DNA of 64,000 nt from a virus: IMG/VR virus record IMGVR_UViG_3300047160_006886, positions 47,991 through 111,990 of that record; one strand, 5' to 3'. This document shows positions 5,201 to 30,324 of the stretch, one piece after another; position 1 is the stretch's first letter, and every line of letters begins with the position of its first letter. Made by a program: the position numbers and the translations under genes. The notes under the pieces are model-generated. The model saw only the letters and a list, made by a program, of their open reading frames with translations, ran no database searches and was not told where the DNA came from.

Positions 5201-5233
5201 TTTCATTTTACCTGTGATATAATCACAGTGGGA
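5201..5233 (-). promoter_or_regulatory. Putative promoter/operator TCCCAC-N17-TAAAATGAAA, copy 1
   Basis: Same boxes and spacing as 45132-45164; contains palindrome CTGTGAT-ATA-ATCACAG. Confidence 0.55.
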
Positions 5234-5335
5234 AAATCCTTTCTTTCTTTTTCTTTTCTTATCTTTTATTCTTAGCAAGGAGGTAGAAACAGATGCAAGG
5301 CGACGTTGTAGAAAAACAATGTTCCCGATGTCTGA

Positions 5336-8638: not shown

Positions 8639-10946
8639 CGCGCATTACCCTCCCGAACAGTCCTCTCATACTTTCCGTCAGCCGCCACATTTCCTGCCCC
8701 TCGACCACCCCGGCCGTCCCTCCCTTGTGATAATACTCGGTCACGCCGATGGCCCGGAGGAACCGCAGCAGCTTCGTGGTGCGGTCGTGGGTCTGGTTGG
8801 TCACCGTGGCAATCCCCGAGCGGTGATTGCCCTGCGTGCCCTGCTTGAACAACCAACGGACCATGTCGAGCGTGGTCCCTCGGGCCGTGTCGAAGGCGAT
8901 CTGTCGGACCTGGGCCATCACCGGCTCGTCCACGCTCTTCCTTTGATACACGCCGGCGAGGCAGATGGCCAGCTTGCCGATCTGGCCGACGAGGCGGGAC
9001 GACAGCTCCCGCGATGAGTGCTCCTCCTGATGCCGCGACGGTCTGGCCCGCAAGCAACTCACAAACTTGCCGAGGTCATTGCAACGCTCGGCGATCTCCT
9101 CGTCGACCGCCACACCGTGCAGGATCTGCACGTCTTGCTCGCGGAGGAAGTTGACGTACCCGGCCGTCATCTGCATCGCCAAGACCATCTCCTTCGAGCG
9201 AGTCAAGGCGATGGAGGACTCGTCGCCGTTCTCGGTGGCGTTGCGGACCACCCGCCAGAACGTCCTGAGACCGATGTTCCGCTCGGAGTCCTCGTCGATC
9301 TTCTCCATCATCACCACGTCGAGGAAGCGCTCGCCCAGCTCCGAGGAGTCGATCTTCCGCAGCGAGTCCGTGCCGCAGATGATGATGCCGAGCTTGATGT
9401 TGTCGTACCGCCGCGAGATGCCGTGGAGGTAATGGACCCTGGCCGCCCCGTCGTACAGGTCTCGCAGCTCGCCGAAGACCTTCGACGGATCGGCCGAGGT
9501 CAAGAGCGTGTCGCCGTCCTTGATCACGAGCGTCTTGTTCTGAATCAGGGGCACCAGGCCGTGATCCTCCTCCCCCTTCTTGTCGGTCTTCCACCCCGAG
9601 TGCATGCCGGTCATCTTCGAGAGCGGGAACACCCAGTCGGTGGCCACGGCCAGGGCTTCGCACAAAGTGCTCTTGCCGGTCGAGGCGGGCGACATCACTT
9701 TGATCCAAAGGGGGTCATCGGACAACCGGGTCGAGAGCACGGTCGCGAGCATCGCCGCCAGAGCCTTCTCCAACCCCTCGGACCACTCCATCGCCTTCCG
9801 CCAACAGTTCTTCAGCTCGGCCCACGATTCGCACCGGAGAGGCTCGATCTGGACCGACCCCGGCCTCGACGCTGGCGACGACGACGTGGACAGCCATTCG
9901 GACGGGATGGGCTTGATCTTCGGCAGCAGCTCCTCGCCGAGCAGCTTGATCCGTTCTGGCAACGTCTCTCCTTGCGACAAGAGATCCCGCACGTCGAAGC
10001 CGGACTTCAGGCTTGGGTCATAGCCGAACACGCCCCACTCCAGCCACTCGACCCTCGACGGCTTCTTCTCGGCAGCAGACAAGATCCTGACCGCCCGCTT
10101 CGAGGCGTCGAACCCGGCTGGAGGCACGTCCTGACCGTTGTATTGCCTCGGATGGTCCGAATCGAAGCACAGGATCACCCGCTTGCCGGCGAACAGCGGA
10201 GCCCATTTTGCGAACGGCGTGCCGACCGATCCGCAGCCAGGGATTGCCAGCACGGCTGACCCGGCGAGCAACGAAGACGATTCCGACCCCGTCTCGGCCA
10301 AGCCGTCCTCCGTCTCCTTCGCGGACTTCAACACCTCCCACAAGGCCATCCCGTCCCAGGGACCTTCCGTCAAGTGAATGCTCGTCGCTTTCCGGTCCCA
10401 CGTCATCGGAGCGAACAGGCCGTGGCCAAGACCGGACGTGGCGTGCAACTCCATCCTGCCTGACTTGCCCTTGACCAACTTGTAAAGTTGACAAAACTTG
10501 CCATTGACGTCGTAAGCAGGCAACAACCAATTGCCATTGATGATCGATCTCGCGACTCCCCACTGGGTCAGCGTGTCGGGCCAGAGCAGCTTCCTCTCCT
10601 CGGCCAGGGCCTTCGTGTGCCCGTTCGTGCGCTCATACGATCTCTGCCACAGGCACTTGAGGAACGACAGCACGTTGCCGCCGACCTTTGGACCCTCCTT
10701 CGTCTCGTGCTGACCCTCGGGACACACCCAGCACCGCCACTGGCCAGTCTCGATCTTGACGTTGAACTTCCCTTCGCGACCGCAGAAGGGACAATCGGAG
10801 ATCGCTTCCCGACCGTTGACTCGGGGATCGAGTCCGTGGAACCGAAAAGGCTTGAGGAAGTCCTGTCCCTGCCCGTCACCTGGTGGAAGCGAAGTCTCTC
10901 GGACTTGACTTCCCGTTGCTGCTGACCTTTGCTCTGCCGTTGGCAT
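8625..10946 (-). CDS. Primase-helicase (Zn finger, TOPRIM, AAA+ P-loop)
   Basis: CPFC..CWVC; TEGPWD..CFDSD; SPASTGKST; RBS before MPTAEQ. Confidence 0.82.
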   Translation of the reverse strand: MPTAEQRSAATGSQVRETSLPPGDGQGQDFLKPFRFHGLDPRVNGREAISDCPFCGREGKFNVKIETGQWRCWVCPEGQHETKEGPKVGGNVLSFLKCLWQRSYERTNGHTKALAEERKLLWPDTLTQWGVARSIINGNWLLPAYDVNGKFCQLYKLVKGKSGRMELHATSGLGHGLFAPMTWDRKATSIHLTEGPWDGMALWEVLKSAKETEDGLAETGSESSSLLAGSAVLAIPGCGSVGTPFAKWAPLFAGKRVILCFDSDHPRQYNGQDVPPAGFDASKRAVRILSAAEKKPSRVEWLEWGVFGYDPSLKSGFDVRDLLSQGETLPERIKLLGEELLPKIKPIPSEWLSTSSSPASRPGSVQIEPLRCESWAELKNCWRKAMEWSEGLEKALAAMLATVLSTRLSDDPLWIKVMSPASTGKSTLCEALAVATDWVFPLSKMTGMHSGWKTDKKGEEDHGLVPLIQNKTLVIKDGDTLLTSADPSKVFGELRDLYDGAARVHYLHGISRRYDNIKLGIIICGTDSLRKIDSSELGERFLDVVMMEKIDEDSERNIGLRTFWRVVRNATENGDESSIALTRSKEMVLAMQMTAGYVNFLREQDVQILHGVAVDEEIAERCNDLGKFVSCLRARPSRHQEEHSSRELSSRLVGQIGKLAICLAGVYQRKSVDEPVMAQVRQIAFDTARGTTLDMVRWLFKQGTQGNHRSGIATVTNQTHDRTTKLLRFLRAIGVTEYYHKGGTAGVVEGQEMWRLTESMRGLFGRVMRDAKS

Positions 10947-15459: not shown

Positions 15460-15619
15460 GTGGTTGTCCTTTCTCCAACAATTCCGACCTGAAGATGGGC
15501 ACCTCTCGCGGTGCCTCGATCCCCAGCCGGACCTTGCCTCTGTCTATCTCCCTGACCGTGACGACCACGTCATCACCGATCACGATTGACTCTCCCAACT
15601 TCCTGACGATTACAAGCAT
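15392..15619 (-). CDS. csrA: Carbon storage regulator CsrA
   Basis: MLVIVRKLGESIVIGDD..VRLGIEAPREVPIFRSEL. Confidence 0.92.
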   Translation of the reverse strand: MLVIVRKLGESIVIGDDVVVTVREIDRGKVRLGIEAPREVPIFRSELLEKGQPHADGDEASRKQQQAVPESEIDG

Positions 15620-19475: not shown

Positions 19476-19710
19476 ATCATTGACAACCGACCGCAGAACC
19501 GGACGACGGCCAGCCCAGGACGGGCAAGACGAAGGCGTGCACCGGGACGCAGCGGGGGGATCGGAGGGGGATGACCCAAACCGATCCCGGCAGACCTGGC
19601 AGAACCAGGAAGTCATCCGAGTCACGCAGATCGAAAGATCGTCAGTGCTACCCTGGAACGGTTTGAAACAGGCGGAAGCCGAGACCGGGTCCATCCCCAA
19701 GCCGCGTGGC

Positions 19711-19812: not shown

Positions 19813-20115
19813 ATGGGGTATCTACAGAATGCGATGACTGTTGGTCAACTGCGAAAAGAACTTGAAGGACTGCCGGATGACGCCGTGGTCCTCTACGTCT
19901 GCGATTACGGCGATCACTGCCACACGCAGCAAGCCCTGCCCATCTCTGAAATCGCCGACCTCGGATGCGACGAGCGGATCGAAGAGTCGGCGTACAGCAG
20001 CTCTGGCCTCTGCCTCTTAACCATCAATGATGAAGACGAGGATGACGACGAGGACAGCGAAAAGGAAACCGAAGAGGAAGAGACCGAAGACCGGAACTAC
20101 ATCATCCTGCGTTAG
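19813..20115 (+). CDS. Acidic hypothetical protein
   Basis: GGAGAG RBS; MTVGQLRKELEGLPDD phage-type motif. Confidence 0.65.
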   Translation: MGYLQNAMTVGQLRKELEGLPDDAVVLYVCDYGDHCHTQQALPISEIADLGCDERIEESAYSSSGLCLLTINDEDEDDDEDSEKETEEEETEDRNYIILR

Positions 20116-20223
20116 CGAACTAACAGCGGGGTCTAGGATCGATCATCCGAACACCGGACTCTCCAGACCGGCCCGACCCCGCTTCTTTCTTTCTGGAGTC
20201 TCAACCCTTTACTGGAGAAAGCC

Positions 20224-22017: not shown

Positions 22018-22382
22018 GCGGATTCATCAACAACTTGTCGAATTATCCTCCAGGCATCTCCGGCAACGAGCCGGAGATCACGGGAGAGCCGAGACGGCCG
22101 AGGCTGAGGAAATACCGCTCGCACTGGAGCGACAACCACAACCAGCTTGACGAGCCGTCCTGTGTCACAAATGCGAAGGAGCAGTGGCCACTCCCCTGGG
22201 TATACTTCTTCGCCAGCTCGCTCAAGGCGGCGAAGGCACGAGTACAAGAATTCAACCTCCTGCTGATGCCGATGAACGCCCCTCAACCAGCTCATTGCCC
22301 GACGCTGTTGCTAGCAAGGCACGGATTCATGAAGTTCCCGGCCGGTCCGTTGGCAGACGTTGACTCAGAGTATCTCGTCTGA
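22014..22382 (+). CDS. Hypothetical protein
   Basis: AAGGAG RBS; SNYPPGISGNEPEITG motif. Confidence 0.55.
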   Translation: MSGFINNLSNYPPGISGNEPEITGEPRRPRLRKYRSHWSDNHNQLDEPSCVTNAKEQWPLPWVYFFASSLKAAKARVQEFNLLLMPMNAPQPAHCPTLLLARHGFMKFPAGPLADVDSEYLV

Positions 22383-24970: not shown

Positions 24971-25225
24971 ATGGCGTCTGAACACGGACCACTCATCGAC
25001 ACTATGGCTGAAGCCCTTGCCAAGTTCGACGAGTCCCATGAGTTCGCCCTGTCCGAGGCCGGCGTCGAGACCGGCCGCTTCGCCACCATCGCCGAGGCCA
25101 GGGAGGAGGTCCGGACGACCTGGGGCGAAGGTCGTCAGCTCGAATGGCGGCGAATGATCGTCGACGGACGGCGAATGCTCGTCCATGAGCAGTTCGCCAT
25201 CTATTCTGTACCGAAGAAGTCGTGA
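24971..25225 (+). CDS. Hypothetical protein
   Basis: GGAGG RBS. Confidence 0.55.
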   Translation: MASEHGPLIDTMAEALAKFDESHEFALSEAGVETGRFATIAEAREEVRTTWGEGRQLEWRRMIVDGRRMLVHEQFAIYSVPKKS

Positions 25226-25351
25226 CGACTTCTCTTCCACCCCTCCTCGGCCTGCCCAGGGTCGGCGAGGGGGACAAGAGCAGCCGACCGATGGCCACCG
25301 AGTCTCGCTTCGAGGCCGGGGCCGCTGCGGTGCTCGCAAGGAGAACGAACG

Positions 25352-25651
25352 ATGGCAGATGTCAATGTCAAGACGGTGTCGTTGGAGTTGAAGACCTGCA
25401 AACTGACCAAAGCGATTCTTAAGCAGATTCCGATGATCAGCTACTCCCAGTACGCCAACGTCCGGTCGGTCTTCACCGAGGAGGGCCACGAAGTCGCCGA
25501 GTGCGTCATCGGCTGGGTCCACGGCTCGGTGCTTGGTGCCGACCATGACCACTGGCTGATCGTCAAGACGCCGGACGGCTACGGCCGGTTGAACATCGGT
25601 CTCGGCGGAAATGACCTCCGCAAGAAGTACCCGCAGATCTACATCGTGTAG
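25352..25651 (+). CDS. Hypothetical protein
   Basis: AGGAG RBS; LTKAILKQIP..VIGWV..YPQIYI. Confidence 0.6.
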   Translation: MADVNVKTVSLELKTCKLTKAILKQIPMISYSQYANVRSVFTEEGHEVAECVIGWVHGSVLGADHDHWLIVKTPDGYGRLNIGLGGNDLRKKYPQIYIV

Positions 25652-26304: not shown

Positions 26305-26538
26305 ATGAGCAAGGAAAGAGACAAACACATTGACGACTTGAACGATCTGGTCAGCTATCTTCAAAAGGAGGGATTGGACGCCGACGACCTGGAGGGAGCC
26401 GTCTGCGACGAGAAGAAAAATGAAGCGGATTTGCTTATCGAAGAAGGGCTTATGAGTGTATGCGAATACCTGATTGAAAACGGTTGGCATTTAGAAGCCA
26501 TCAGAAACGAAGCAAGACAAGAAAAGGCCCAGGAGTGA
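26305..26538 (+). CDS. Small acidic hypothetical protein (lower GC)
   Basis: AAGGA RBS. Confidence 0.6.
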   Translation: MSKERDKHIDDLNDLVSYLQKEGLDADDLEGAVCDEKKNEADLLIEEGLMSVCEYLIENGWHLEAIRNEARQEKAQE

Positions 26539-26583
26539 CACGGCACTGTCATCCGTGAGAGGACCAGCCGCTCTTCAGGCTGG
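26539..26583 (+). ncRNA. Hairpin plus H-type pseudoknot motif, copy A
   Basis: Same architecture as 26832-26876 with covarying stems. Confidence 0.6.
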
Positions 26584-26600
26584 ACTGTAAGGAAAGTGAA

Positions 26601-26831
26601 ATGAAAATCCTATTAGAGCCGCTGTTAGACTGGATCACCAGCAACGTCTATGACAGCGGGCACGGTTTGTTGGGTCCGCCCAGTTGGGTGATCGATGCCG
26701 AGACCATCTTGGACAAGCTAAGGGAGCTGGCCGGTATATCCAAACACGAAATGACTGTGGCTTATGACCAGGCAAGAATCCGAGTACATGGAAGAAACGT
26801 TGATGGGGGAACCTACCTCGACGAGAACTGA
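26601..26831 (+). CDS. Hypothetical protein (lower GC)
   Basis: AAGGA RBS. Confidence 0.55.
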   Translation: MKILLEPLLDWITSNVYDSGHGLLGPPSWVIDAETILDKLRELAGISKHEMTVAYDQARIRVHGRNVDGGTYLDEN

Positions 26832-26876
26832 CTGGGCAGCGTCATCCCAGACACGAGCGAGCGGTGTTCAGCTCGC
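26832..26876 (+). ncRNA. Hairpin plus H-type pseudoknot motif, copy B
   Basis: Covarying copy of 26539-26583. Confidence 0.6.
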
Positions 26877-26894
26877 ACAGTCAGGAGTTCAATC

Positions 26895-29441
26895 ATGAAA
26901 GCCAAAGACATCAAGCAAGGCCACCACTACGAAACGAAGATCGGCGGCAAGCTGACAGTCGTAAAAGTAGATCGGATCAACGAGGAGCGAGAGCCAACGC
27001 TGGGCACCAACCGCTCCCGGAAGACCGGGAAGATGACTTTTGAGGTCACCAACCTCTCAACCGGCCGCAAGACCACGTTCCGGTCGGCGGCGAAGTTCCG
27101 TCGGGAGGCCACCCCCGGCAGCCTCGTCATGGAGCATGAAAACAAACGCATCAAGAGATTGCAGGAGCAAGTTGCCGAGAAGGTCATCCGCCCGACCATC
27201 GACAAGCTAGTCGAGCAAGGAGTCCTGCCGAAGCCCACCGGCGAGGTAAAGATCGAGTACCCCAATGTCCCTTTCGCCGAGCGGGAGGCGAGACCCCCAG
27301 CGAAATCGTCGAGCGACACTCCAGGCTCCACGGCACGCTCCAGCCGCTCGACCCCACCTTCGTCCGGAACTCAGTCGACAGCAAGGACAACCGCTGCTGG
27401 TGTGAACATTGCTCAGCCGCACGGCAGCCGAGAGAATCCCGGCAGCAGCGACGAGATCGAGAGCACCGAGAACAGCTCCAGCGAGGCTACCGAATCCTCG
27501 CCGGCGAGGCCGCTGACCCACCAGCAGGTCAAGGCGATATTCGACGCGGTGGACAAGACCGAGTTGCTCAAGAAGGTCCGCTCGACAAACGATCCGACTC
27601 CCCTCTCGCTTCAGCAGTGCCAGGAGGTTGTGATGAGCGAACAGGAGGAGGTGCTCAAGATCATGAGAGAGACCAGGGGCAAGCCGGAGTTGCGAGACAA
27701 GAAGCTGCGGGAGCTGGCCAACCGACACAACCGTGGTGGAAGGAGATCGCAGACCAACACGCTGAGTGCTCCCGACGAAGCCTCAAGCCACCACACAGGA
27801 CTGACTTCCGAAACATCTCCTTTGACCCTTCCCTCGTCACCGGCAGATGCAGATGTCGAGCCTGCCGGGAAGGAGTCAACAACGGCTACCGACCCAGCAT
27901 CACAGCAACCCCAACTGACCCCGACGAGGGAGAAGGATGCCCCGGTAGTTGAGAACCTGAAGGAGACGCTCCAGCGGGCAATCAACCAGGTGACCGAGAC
28001 GATTCCTGAAGCCGCCGGTCTCCAGGGCGATCAGCCGCAGGCATTCATCGACCTGACTACTAAGATCAGCGATGGCAAGCGGGTCGTGGTGCTGTGTGGC
28101 TTCGCCGGCACGGGCAAGACCGTGCTGCTGACTCGGATCGCCCGCTGGGCCAAGCGGCAGAAGTACGATGTGAAAATCGCCGCCCCGACCCACAAAGCAG
28201 CATCGGTCATTTCTCAGAAACTCGCTTCGTCCGGACCCGGTGGAACCGACATCGAGGTCCGCACGATTCATTCGATGCTCGGCTTGAGGCTGGAGCCGGA
28301 TTACGAGTCCGACTCCGGCGGTCACATCCTGACTGCCCAGGACAGCAAGTCCAAGGTGAAGACCGGCCTGGTGATTTGTGACGAAGCGTCGATGGTCGGT
28401 GAAGTCCTCAAAGACCACATCGAGAAGTCGAGCAGCGACATCATCTGGGTATTCGTAGGGGATTTAGCTCAGCTCCCGCCGGTCGGCGAGAGCATCAGCG
28501 AACTCCTGGACGAGCCGGATGCGGTGCTGGAGAACGTGCTCCGCCAGGCCCAGGGATCGGAGATCCTGAACCTGGCGACCCGCATCCGCAAGGGTGACAT
28601 GAGCATGAAGCACAAGAAGGGCAAGGACGTATTCGAGGTCGCCGATGCCGAGCAGCTGTTCCAGGCCGCTCTGACCAAGTTCCGGGACCCGGCCTACCAG
28701 AAAGACCCGTCGTTCGCACGGATGCTGGTCTTCAAGAACGCAAGGCGGCAGGCCATCAACGCCCGGATGCGAGACCTGCTGGTCGGCTCCCAGCAGCCTT
28801 ATGAGCCGGGCGAGTGGCTGGTCATGTACCAGCAGTTCGCTCCGGAGAAGTCGCGGCTCAATCTCATGGCCGAGGAGGCGAAGAAGTTTCCGAAGGGCGA
28901 CCGCAGACGCGGCCCGGCCTGGAAGCGGTTCTTCGACTACCAGCGGCAGCTCGGCGAGTCGGTGTCAATGCTCCATGTCAGCGAGGAGGTCCGCGTGGTA
29001 GCGGTCTCCGAACGGGATGTCGATATCGACGACTACACATTCGGCGTCTGGAGCCTGACCGTCCGGACCAAGGACGACCAGGAATACGTCCTGCCGGTAC
29101 TCAAGGACGAGGAGCGGGAGCGTCACTCGAAGGCCCTGGCGACCATCATGGCCAAGGCCCAGGAATATCGAGCCGAGCGGGATGAGTGCCCGAAGGGGTC
29201 GCCTGACTGGATTGATTGGGACGAGAAGCGGAAGAAGGAGTGGGGCCGCTATTTCGGCATGGAGTCCACGTTCGCTCAAGTGGACTACTGCTACTGCATG
29301 ACCACCCACAAGAGCCAGGGGTCCACGTTCGATCATGTGTTCGTCGATGTCCCCGACTTGATGTCGAGCGGCGGCATGCAACAACGAATCCTTTACACGT
29401 CGGTTACACGACCGGCGAAAAGCCTGACCTTTTACAAGTGA
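26895..29441 (+). CDS. Dda/RecD-like SF1B helicase with long N-terminal extension
   Basis: GFAGTGKT, APTHKAA, DEASMV, VGDLAQLPPV, THKSQGST, YTSVTR. Confidence 0.9.
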   Translation: MKAKDIKQGHHYETKIGGKLTVVKVDRINEEREPTLGTNRSRKTGKMTFEVTNLSTGRKTTFRSAAKFRREATPGSLVMEHENKRIKRLQEQVAEKVIRPTIDKLVEQGVLPKPTGEVKIEYPNVPFAEREARPPAKSSSDTPGSTARSSRSTPPSSGTQSTARTTAAGVNIAQPHGSRENPGSSDEIESTENSSSEATESSPARPLTHQQVKAIFDAVDKTELLKKVRSTNDPTPLSLQQCQEVVMSEQEEVLKIMRETRGKPELRDKKLRELANRHNRGGRRSQTNTLSAPDEASSHHTGLTSETSPLTLPSSPADADVEPAGKESTTATDPASQQPQLTPTREKDAPVVENLKETLQRAINQVTETIPEAAGLQGDQPQAFIDLTTKISDGKRVVVLCGFAGTGKTVLLTRIARWAKRQKYDVKIAAPTHKAASVISQKLASSGPGGTDIEVRTIHSMLGLRLEPDYESDSGGHILTAQDSKSKVKTGLVICDEASMVGEVLKDHIEKSSSDIIWVFVGDLAQLPPVGESISELLDEPDAVLENVLRQAQGSEILNLATRIRKGDMSMKHKKGKDVFEVADAEQLFQAALTKFRDPAYQKDPSFARMLVFKNARRQAINARMRDLLVGSQQPYEPGEWLVMYQQFAPEKSRLNLMAEEAKKFPKGDRRRGPAWKRFFDYQRQLGESVSMLHVSEEVRVVAVSERDVDIDDYTFGVWSLTVRTKDDQEYVLPVLKDEERERHSKALATIMAKAQEYRAERDECPKGSPDWIDWDEKRKKEWGRYFGMESTFAQVDYCYCMTTHKSQGSTFDHVFVDVPDLMSSGGMQQRILYTSVTRPAKSLTFYK

Positions 29442-29703
29442 AAGGAGATTCAAGCAATGTTGCTAGGCAAGCAGACAATATCCATCAGAGCCATCATCCG
29501 ACCAAGATGGTTGAACACCGAGATGAGGACTCGCATCAACGAGAGCAAAGTCAGCCAGTACGCCCCTCGAGATGTCTGAAGCTGCTGTCGGAAGCAGCAG
29601 CGGCAGGGGATGTCGACCCCGATGATGTCACCGATGCAGCCGTTGCCTACTTGAAGGACAACGGCTGGATCAAGAAACCAAGAAAAGAAAGGAGACCCAA
29701 GCA

Positions 29704-30324
29704 ATGACCGACGACAACAAACCGCCGGACTTCGACAAGTTCCTGGCGAAGATGCAGATCACCGTGGAAGAGATGGAGGCCGAACGGGACACCATCCTCG
29801 CCTGGCTCAAGGGCCTCTACTCCAAGCGGGAGTTCGATGGCAACCTGATGCCGACCCTGTTCGTGCGGGTCATCGACTTCGCCACCTCCGAAGAGGAGAT
29901 GGCGGTCACGGTCGTGCCCGGCAGCTTTAACGAAGGCCACGAGAAGCACCCGGTTATGGAGAAAGCCGGTCGCGAGCTGTATGAGCGGGAGAAGATCCCT
30001 CGCAGTATCTTCATAGCTGCCGAGGCCTGGATGGCCAGCTATAAGGGCGAGGTCAAGGACATCAAGGCCCAACCCCGCGATGACCCGAACCGCCGCGAGG
30101 TGGTCATCATCAACGGCAGTTCGTTCGACCAGAAGCACCAGCTGATGGCGGCGTTGCCCATCGTTCGTCCGGCCAGGGGCAGCCGGAAGCTGCGGCCCTA
30201 TCTCGACTTCTCGAAGCTGGAGACCGGGGCCACGCAGATCACCTCCCGGCTGCTCGAATCGTTCGTGCGAGGCTACGTCATGGCCTGCCCGCCGCTGGCC
30301 AGGGCGATCCTCGAACGGAACTAA
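29704..30324 (+). CDS. Hypothetical protein
   Basis: EAWM..PRDDPNRREVV motif; RBS. Confidence 0.6.
   Translation: MTDDNKPPDFDKFLAKMQITVEEMEAERDTILAWLKGLYSKREFDGNLMPTLFVRVIDFATSEEEMAVTVVPGSFNEGHEKHPVMEKAGRELYEREKIPRSIFIAAEAWMASYKGEVKDIKAQPRDDPNRREVVIINGSSFDQKHQLMAALPIVRPARGSRKLRPYLDFSKLETGATQITSRLLESFVRGYVMACPPLARAILERN

Follow-up and report, generated by a model that had tools for sequence, protein, structure and literature searches.

A two-copy 45-nt hairpin-pseudoknot element at two gene boundaries of an uncultured phage: a possible mRNA boundary module

Introduction

Structured RNAs and ribozymes located between phage genes are already known. The locus described here raises the question of what a short RNA element, present in two copies at consecutive gene boundaries and resembling no catalogued family, may do for the phage that carries it. 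The window, i.e. the whole stretch of DNA that was analyzed (64,000 nt), comprises bases 47991-111990 of a 111,990-bp IMG/VR virus record (IMGVR_UViG_3300047160_006886), which represents an uncultured phage and whose completeness was estimated at 93%. Coordinates given below refer to the window, unless another contig is named.

Results and Discussion

Genes surrounding the element

According to the ORF list, the genes located between approximately 19.8 and 32 kb are encoded on the plus strand, are mostly small orphans and in many cases overlap via ATGA. Besides the orphans, this block encodes a DUF6011 protein, a 717-aa orphan and an 848-aa helicase. Scanning revealed no sigma-70-like promoter anywhere in the 19.8-32 kb block and no terminator-like site on the plus strand inside it, which together fit a single polycistronic early/replication mRNA. 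The block looks like one long early/replication operon, and the element occurs in it, in the following order (all features on the plus strand):

26305-26538, plus strand: orphan gene X (77 aa, from the ORF list), whose TGA stop (26536-26538) abuts copy A
26539-26557, plus strand: hairpin H1 of copy A, with a 5-bp stem (26539-26543/26553-26557) and the 9-nt loop CANNGUCAU
26558-26583, plus strand: H-type pseudoknot of copy A, with stems S1 (26558-26561/26571-26574) and S2 (26564-26569/26578-26583), and loops L1 GA, junction G and L3 UCA
26584-26600, plus strand: tail of copy A, ACNGUNAGGA, which holds the SD sequence, located 7 nt from the ATG at 26601
26601-26831, plus strand: orphan gene Y (76 aa), between copy A and copy B, unrelated to X
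26832-26850, plus strand: hairpin H1 of copy B (26832-26836/26846-26850), with the same loop consensus as copy A
26851-26876, plus strand: pseudoknot of copy B, with stems S1 (26851-26854/26864-26867) and S2 (26857-26862/26871-26876), and loops GA, G and UCA
26877-26894, plus strand: tail of copy B, with the SD sequence AGGAG, located 7 nt from the ATG at 26895
26895-29441, plus strand: Dda/RecD-like SF1 helicase (848 aa) with a modular N-terminal extension

Pfam and PHROG searches with the product of gene X gave no match of value, and the protein atlas provided no leads for either X or Y. Both are acidic orphans in which no RNA-binding signature was found (Pfam, PHROG, protein atlas). Tandem duplication of a gene-plus-motif unit was considered as the origin of the two copies and rejected, as X and Y are unrelated. 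Met1 of the helicase (26895) aligns with Met1 of 9 relatives that have N-terminal extensions, and none of these 9 proteins contains a Y-like part. The first ~70 aa of the helicase (26895-27119, plus strand) constitute a separate conserved domain, which heads the helicases of several relatives and is encoded by a stand-alone gene in contig L187 (20234-20437; see below) and in some IMG/VR phages (L386, L387, L390 and L391); the 848-aa protein is thus a modular fusion.

Several other features of this region were recorded. A CsrA homologue (PF02599, 77.8 bits) is encoded at approximately 15470-15619 (minus strand), within a leftward gene block adjoining the early operon. A near-threshold match to the int-alpA RNA motif (32.4 bits vs a gathering score of 35.8) was found at 20126-20196 (plus strand), in a 108-nt gap following the first early gene. 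Two other long gaps of the operon, 25223-25354 and 29577-29706 (plus strand), form more stable folds than shuffled controls (z = -2.3 and -4.0, respectively); their sequences are unrelated to the 45-nt motif, and the latter gap may hide a small ORF.

Two collinear copies at fixed distances from translation signals

The first-pass annotation of this DNA, made from the letters and a list of ORFs, had described a 45-nt motif occurring twice with equal lengths, and the sequence confirms both the lengths and the coordinates. Copies A (26539-26583) and B (26832-26876), both 45 nt long and collinear, occupy consecutive gaps of 62 and 63 nt, before gene Y and the helicase gene, respectively. Their alignment is gap-free and spans 58 columns, starting with the TGA stop and including the AGGA of the SD sequence. 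Both elements begin on the very next base after the stop codon of the preceding gene (26536-26538 for copy A and 26829-26831 for copy B), in each case as UGA-C without any spacer, and the next ATGs are located 17 nt past copy A (26601) and 18 nt past copy B (26895), just as the annotation had stated. The spacing is therefore 0 nt after UGA, 6 nt to AGGA and 17-18 nt to AUG in both copies. These two are the only copies in the 111,990-bp genome.

Comparative evidence for the fold

Comparison of the copies, i.e. of two sequences from one genome, showed that all 15 proposed base pairs form in both of them (30/30 cells paired, no broken pairs), and that 8 of the 15 are changed on both sides (2/5 in H1, 2/4 in S1 and 4/6 in S2). 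The stem differences are all compensated (16/16). The observed level of pairing and compensation was reached by 1 of 500 shuffles, and in a control in which the 3' partners were slid by 1-3 columns, 20-43% of cells were paired with 0-1 compensated pairs. The proposal of a hairpin followed by an H-type pseudoknot with covarying stems is therefore upheld by compensatory changes in all three helices. Its conserved loops (GA, G and UCA) also stood up to this analysis, since 13 of the 15 unpaired bases are identical and the remaining 2 are the NN of the H1 loop. The loops are thus more conserved than the stems, which suggests that specific loop bases matter, and this pattern is what would be expected of a folded RNA with specific contacts. 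For a pair of copies, both from one uncultured phage genome, this covariation is unusually clean.

Minimum-free-energy folding returns H1 and the S2 hairpin, and the 4-bp S1 rests on its two compensated pairs. In the H-type order (S1a-S2a-S1b-S2b) both helices are 100% paired in both copies, with an L1 of 2 nt over the 6-bp S2 and an L3 of 3 nt over the 4-bp S1; by textbook rules, it is plausible that loops of these lengths span the grooves. The motif contains no G-U pairs, so the pairing itself is strand-neutral. It is known from pseudoknot stereochemistry that a loop of 2 nt is too short to span the minor groove of a 6-bp helix, and as the minus-strand version would demand exactly this, a minus-strand pseudoknot is disfavoured. 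Gene orientation, the stop/SD/AUG register and the pseudoknot loop lengths all point to the plus strand. In these two sequences, the UCAU of the H1 loop can also pair with the AUGA at both downstream start codons.

Other structures were tried and rejected. A duplex-DNA operator, of which the half-sites should be the conserved part, was ruled out as the half-sites differ between the copies, a closing helix between the stop region and the tail is not conserved (7 bp in copy B and 3 contiguous bp in copy A), and ARAGORN found no tRNA-like gene. The motif is a real, well-folded and uncatalogued RNA element.

Searches for known families and for homologues

The motif had been reported as belonging to no recognized family, and this description stands. 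A search of the window against Rfam 15 gave nothing at the gathering score, and the sole match within 26400-27000 at E<=10 was a chance miRNA on the minus strand. In the same interval, the models of hammerhead, twister, twister-sister, pistol, hatchet and HDV ribozymes gave no match even at E<=10.

A covariance model (R1) was built from copies A and B. Applied to the whole genome and to the related contigs L187 and L188, it retrieved nothing beyond the two known copies, and no new copy was found in 35 helicase loci, 11 further helicase loci and 6 of 7 loci encoding the helicase N-domain. Pattern searches of IMG/VR were carried out with (i) a strict 17-base pattern of the whole element, which gave 0 matches, (ii) a loop-only 15-base pattern, which gave 31 matches, none of which folds, (iii) an H1-only 14-base pattern, which gave at least 117 matches, and (iv) a pseudoknot-only 14-base pattern, which gave at least 116 matches, none of those listed being fully paired. 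Among the H1-only matches listed, 16 have a 5-bp stem, none of these 16 has the pseudoknot or a preceding stop, and the best one (L280) lies within a coding region. A loose descriptor run over 4.3 Mb of loci gave no convincing match. The search for homologues proposed at first pass, carried out over these databases and loci, thus yielded none, which weakens the case for a widespread family. A supposedly related element at 19588-19619 also has to be set aside: its letters (CGGCA...GUCAUCCG) are present, but R1 does not find it, and GTCATCC, which occurs 27 times in the genome, can pair there with GGATGAC located ~40 nt upstream.

When IMG/VR and GTDB genomes were scanned with the helicase as anchor, and GenBank phages were searched by tblastn, no match exceeded ~36% identity; by these searches, the phage is without close kin in all three collections. 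Closer relatives, 22 in number, were found as proteins in Logan, ENA and JGI data, in which sequences 55-63% identical to the helicase core occur. The metagenome scan led only to L187, which is part of a 118-kb contig, and L188, which is 1.9 kb long and 5'-truncated. For now, the motif is an orphan family of two.

Ribozyme matches in the same operon and in a related phage

The closest reachable relative is L187, whose helicase is 59% identical to that of the phage studied here, and which also shares the 717-aa protein, a 55-aa protein and the helicase N-domain. Three ribozyme matches were found, one in the operon itself and two in L187:

19714-19795, plus strand: candidate twister-P1 ribozyme (RF03160), 42.2 bits, below the gathering score of 67.2
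L187, 9811-9880, plus strand: type II hammerhead ribozyme (RF02276), 42.5 bits (gathering score 37), with a non-canonical CUGAAGG core
L187, 5224-5290, plus strand: type II hammerhead ribozyme (RF02276), 36.4 bits, with a canonical CUGAUGA core

The twister-P1 candidate (E=7e-8 over 0.7 kb and 1.4e-6 over 13 kb) heads the operon, upstream of its first gene. It contains the core segments UAA, GUCCCAAG and GAGGG, as well as a 24-nt insert, compared with 11 in the model. Its last helix stops 17 nt short of the ATG at 19813, and the motif copies end 17-18 nt before theirs. In the early operon of L187, the hammerheads begin 0 nt (9811-9880) and 2 nt (5224-5290) after TGA stops, the latter following TGA-C as both motif copies do. 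The former occupies the gap before the gene immediately upstream of the helicase, which corresponds in position to the gap of copy A. The motif itself is absent from L187 and L188 according to R1, and the 7 other phages with the helicase N-domain contain neither these ribozymes nor the motif (R1 having been applied to 6 of the 7 loci). A segment at the edge of the L187 locus (22058-22137, plus strand), which may be a tRNA-like element, matches the tmRNA model weakly and in part (25.7 bits, E=1.8e-6).

These ribozymes and the motif share (i) the slot, 0-2 nt after a TGA and short of the next SD/ATG in a long early operon, (ii) the size (45-80 nt) and (iii) the general plan, i.e. two short hairpins with 7-9-nt loops and a tertiary contact. 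In a type II hammerhead, the cleavage site lies between the hairpins of stems III and I, and each product is left with a hairpin end. The motif is laid out as hairpins of 5-6 bp with loops of 8-9 nt and a 6-nt link, and its H1 and S2 hairpin are similar to those of the type II hammerhead in size and arrangement. In contrast to the ribozymes, the motif has neither the CUGANGA/GAAA/UH core of the hammerhead nor the twister core; inspection by eye found no GAAA 5' of H1, and in both copies H1 is followed by G-A, not by UH.

A boundary module as the preferred explanation

The role of the motif is most likely exerted at the mRNA level, at the boundaries between genes. The explanation that we prefer, while placing it somewhat short of an even chance, is that of a cis-acting mRNA boundary module, serving in processing, end-capping or insulation. 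Such a module would mark two gene boundaries on one long early/replication mRNA. After departure of the ribosome from the UGA, the 45-nt element would fold, with H1 forming directly behind the upstream gene and the compact knotted hairpin forming 6 nt ahead of the next SD sequence. The motif would then do the job that self-cleaving ribozymes presumably do in equivalent gaps: an RNase of the host or the phage, or the RNA itself, may make a cut within or close to the 6 nt that link the hairpins, or, alternatively, a nuclease travelling along the RNA may be halted at the motif. The upstream cistron would be left with a 3' hairpin end, and the downstream cistron (Y, then the helicase) would begin with a structured 5' cap, behind which the ribosome-binding site would be open and insulated.

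The proposal that the motif fills a ribozyme slot is derived from the twister candidate in the same operon, the placement of the hammerheads in L187 and the similar architecture; as an analogy built on one distant relative, this argument is suggestive. A ribozyme, a nuclease block, a processing signal and a translational switch had all been put forward for the motif at first pass. Owing to the twister candidate in the operon and the hammerheads found in the same kind of slot in L187, the context favours processing and nuclease blocking, and speaks less for the translational switch. Conserved loop bases would be superfluous in a plain end-cap, and fit a specific binding protein or catalysis better.

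Among known nuclease blocks, the closest comparison is with coremin (xrRNA-C), which blocks a 5'-3' exonuclease and ribosomes, and is defined by a YGAD (or YGNNAD) loop on a first hairpin of 3-5 bp, a 10-nt spacer (..AAACUAC) that ends in CUAC and contacts the first loop, and a second hairpin of at least 4 bp (PMC6546385, PMC10321173). Coremin/xrRNA-C, together with its Watson-Crick variant, is like the motif in its size (~45 nt), two short hairpins and a conserved spacer engaged in a pseudoknot, and the second hairpin of the motif, with 6 bp, agrees with the coremin feature. The first loop of the motif, however, is the 9-nt CANNGUCAU and not YGAD, and its spacer is 6 nt long (ANANGA) and pairs with the loop of the second hairpin. 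On account of these differences in the first loop and the spacer, membership in the coremin family was rejected. Bacteria are not known to have Xrn1. The motif may work like a coremin-type roadblock without belonging to that family.

Competing explanations

The first rival is a translational operator, which we regard as unlikely, yet stronger than the remaining alternatives. A phage or host protein would recognize the conserved loops (CANNGUCAU, GA, G and UCA), 6 nt from the SD sequence, and block or help 30S binding, so that Y and the helicase would be regulated together. Nearly invariant loops on drifting stems are typical of protein sites, and the element ends at approximately -18 from the AUG, which is the edge of the ribosome footprint. 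As to the binder, a CsrA homologue is among the proteins of the phage, but CsrA requires GGA, which is absent from the conserved loops. A CsrA site is a GGA in a hairpin loop, usually with two sites, and here GGA occurs only in the SD sequence (AGGA) and once at a stem edge, in copy A. No other candidate binder was found either, X and Y having no RNA-binding signature. A further argument for an operator is that a replication gene lies downstream, as with the pseudoknot of T4 gene 32 and the hairpin of gene 43, whose products (gp32 and gp43) regulate their own mRNAs via operators (PMC3014915). The likeness extends to specific loop bases and to the position of the pseudoknot or hairpin, ahead of a replication gene's ribosome-binding site. 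Unlike the T4 operators, the motif ends at -18, has no A+U tract, is present twice, abuts a stop and has no known binding protein. An operator also gives no reason for both copies starting exactly at a stop codon.

It is improbable, in our estimation, that the hairpin and pseudoknot are themselves catalytic and constitute a new self-cleaving ribozyme, cutting the mRNA at the boundary. The motif sits in a slot held by ribozymes in the same operon and in L187, and it shares with small ribozymes a compact fold, a pseudoknot and invariant unpaired positions. Weinberg et al. reportedly found, in 2015, new ribozyme classes by searching beside twister and hammerhead ribozymes. Against catalysis, the known catalytic cores are absent and ribozyme models gave no match at E<=10, 45 nt with 15 pairs leave little room for an active site, most candidates of this kind do not cleave, and there are two examples only. 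The helix order of the motif (a-a'-b-c-b'-c') differs from the pistol and HDV topologies. That the motif is a very small new ribozyme class, used by phages interchangeably with twister and hammerhead for cutting polycistronic early mRNA where one gene gives way to the next, would be a similarly long shot.

A little less probable still is recoding or coupling, in which the structure following UGA-C would promote read-through or termination-reinitiation. Pseudoknots placed after stop codons stimulate read-through in retroviruses, and in both copies UGA-C abuts the element without a spacer; moreover, the read-through frame of copy B is open for 21 codons into the ATG of the helicase. The read-through frame of copy A ends at a UGA overlapping the ATG of Y. 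Open frames of 21 codons are, however, expected by chance at 60% GC, and TGA is simply the commonest stop here (14/22). Differences between the copies number 2, 9 and 10 at codon positions 1, 2 and 3, i.e. show no third-position bias, and are mostly residue-changing, so the 21-codon stretch is not conserved as a peptide. In the 9 helicase relatives translation starts at the Met aligned to Met1, and a Y-like part is present in none. The motif is similar to the pseudoknots of read-through and frameshift systems (e.g. MuLV gag-pol) in that a pseudoknot lies downstream of a stop, but it differs from them in having a hairpin rather than a spacer after the stop, in lacking a slippery site, and in that a fusion product is not seen among the helicase relatives. 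Bacterial SECIS/selenoprotein recoding was rejected on the same grounds, the post-UGA peptide not being conserved and Met1 of the helicase aligning with its relatives.

Least probable is that the folds form in single-stranded DNA for replication, e.g. as a priming or helicase-loading signal: Watson-Crick covariation without G-U pairs is strand-neutral and the motif adjoins a replication helicase gene, but the stop/SD/AUG register fixed in both copies points to mRNA, and by standard stereochemistry the loop lengths suit only the plus (mRNA) strand.

Significance of the element

One phage thus combines a candidate twister with an uncatalogued 45-nt knot, and gaps of the same kind are occupied by hammerheads in its relative. 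Should the knot undergo cutting or act as a block to a nuclease, it would represent a minimal portable part for splitting and insulating cistrons, and would support the notion of an RNA-level control of early gene dosage by phages. If it self-cleaves, it would constitute a new ribozyme class.
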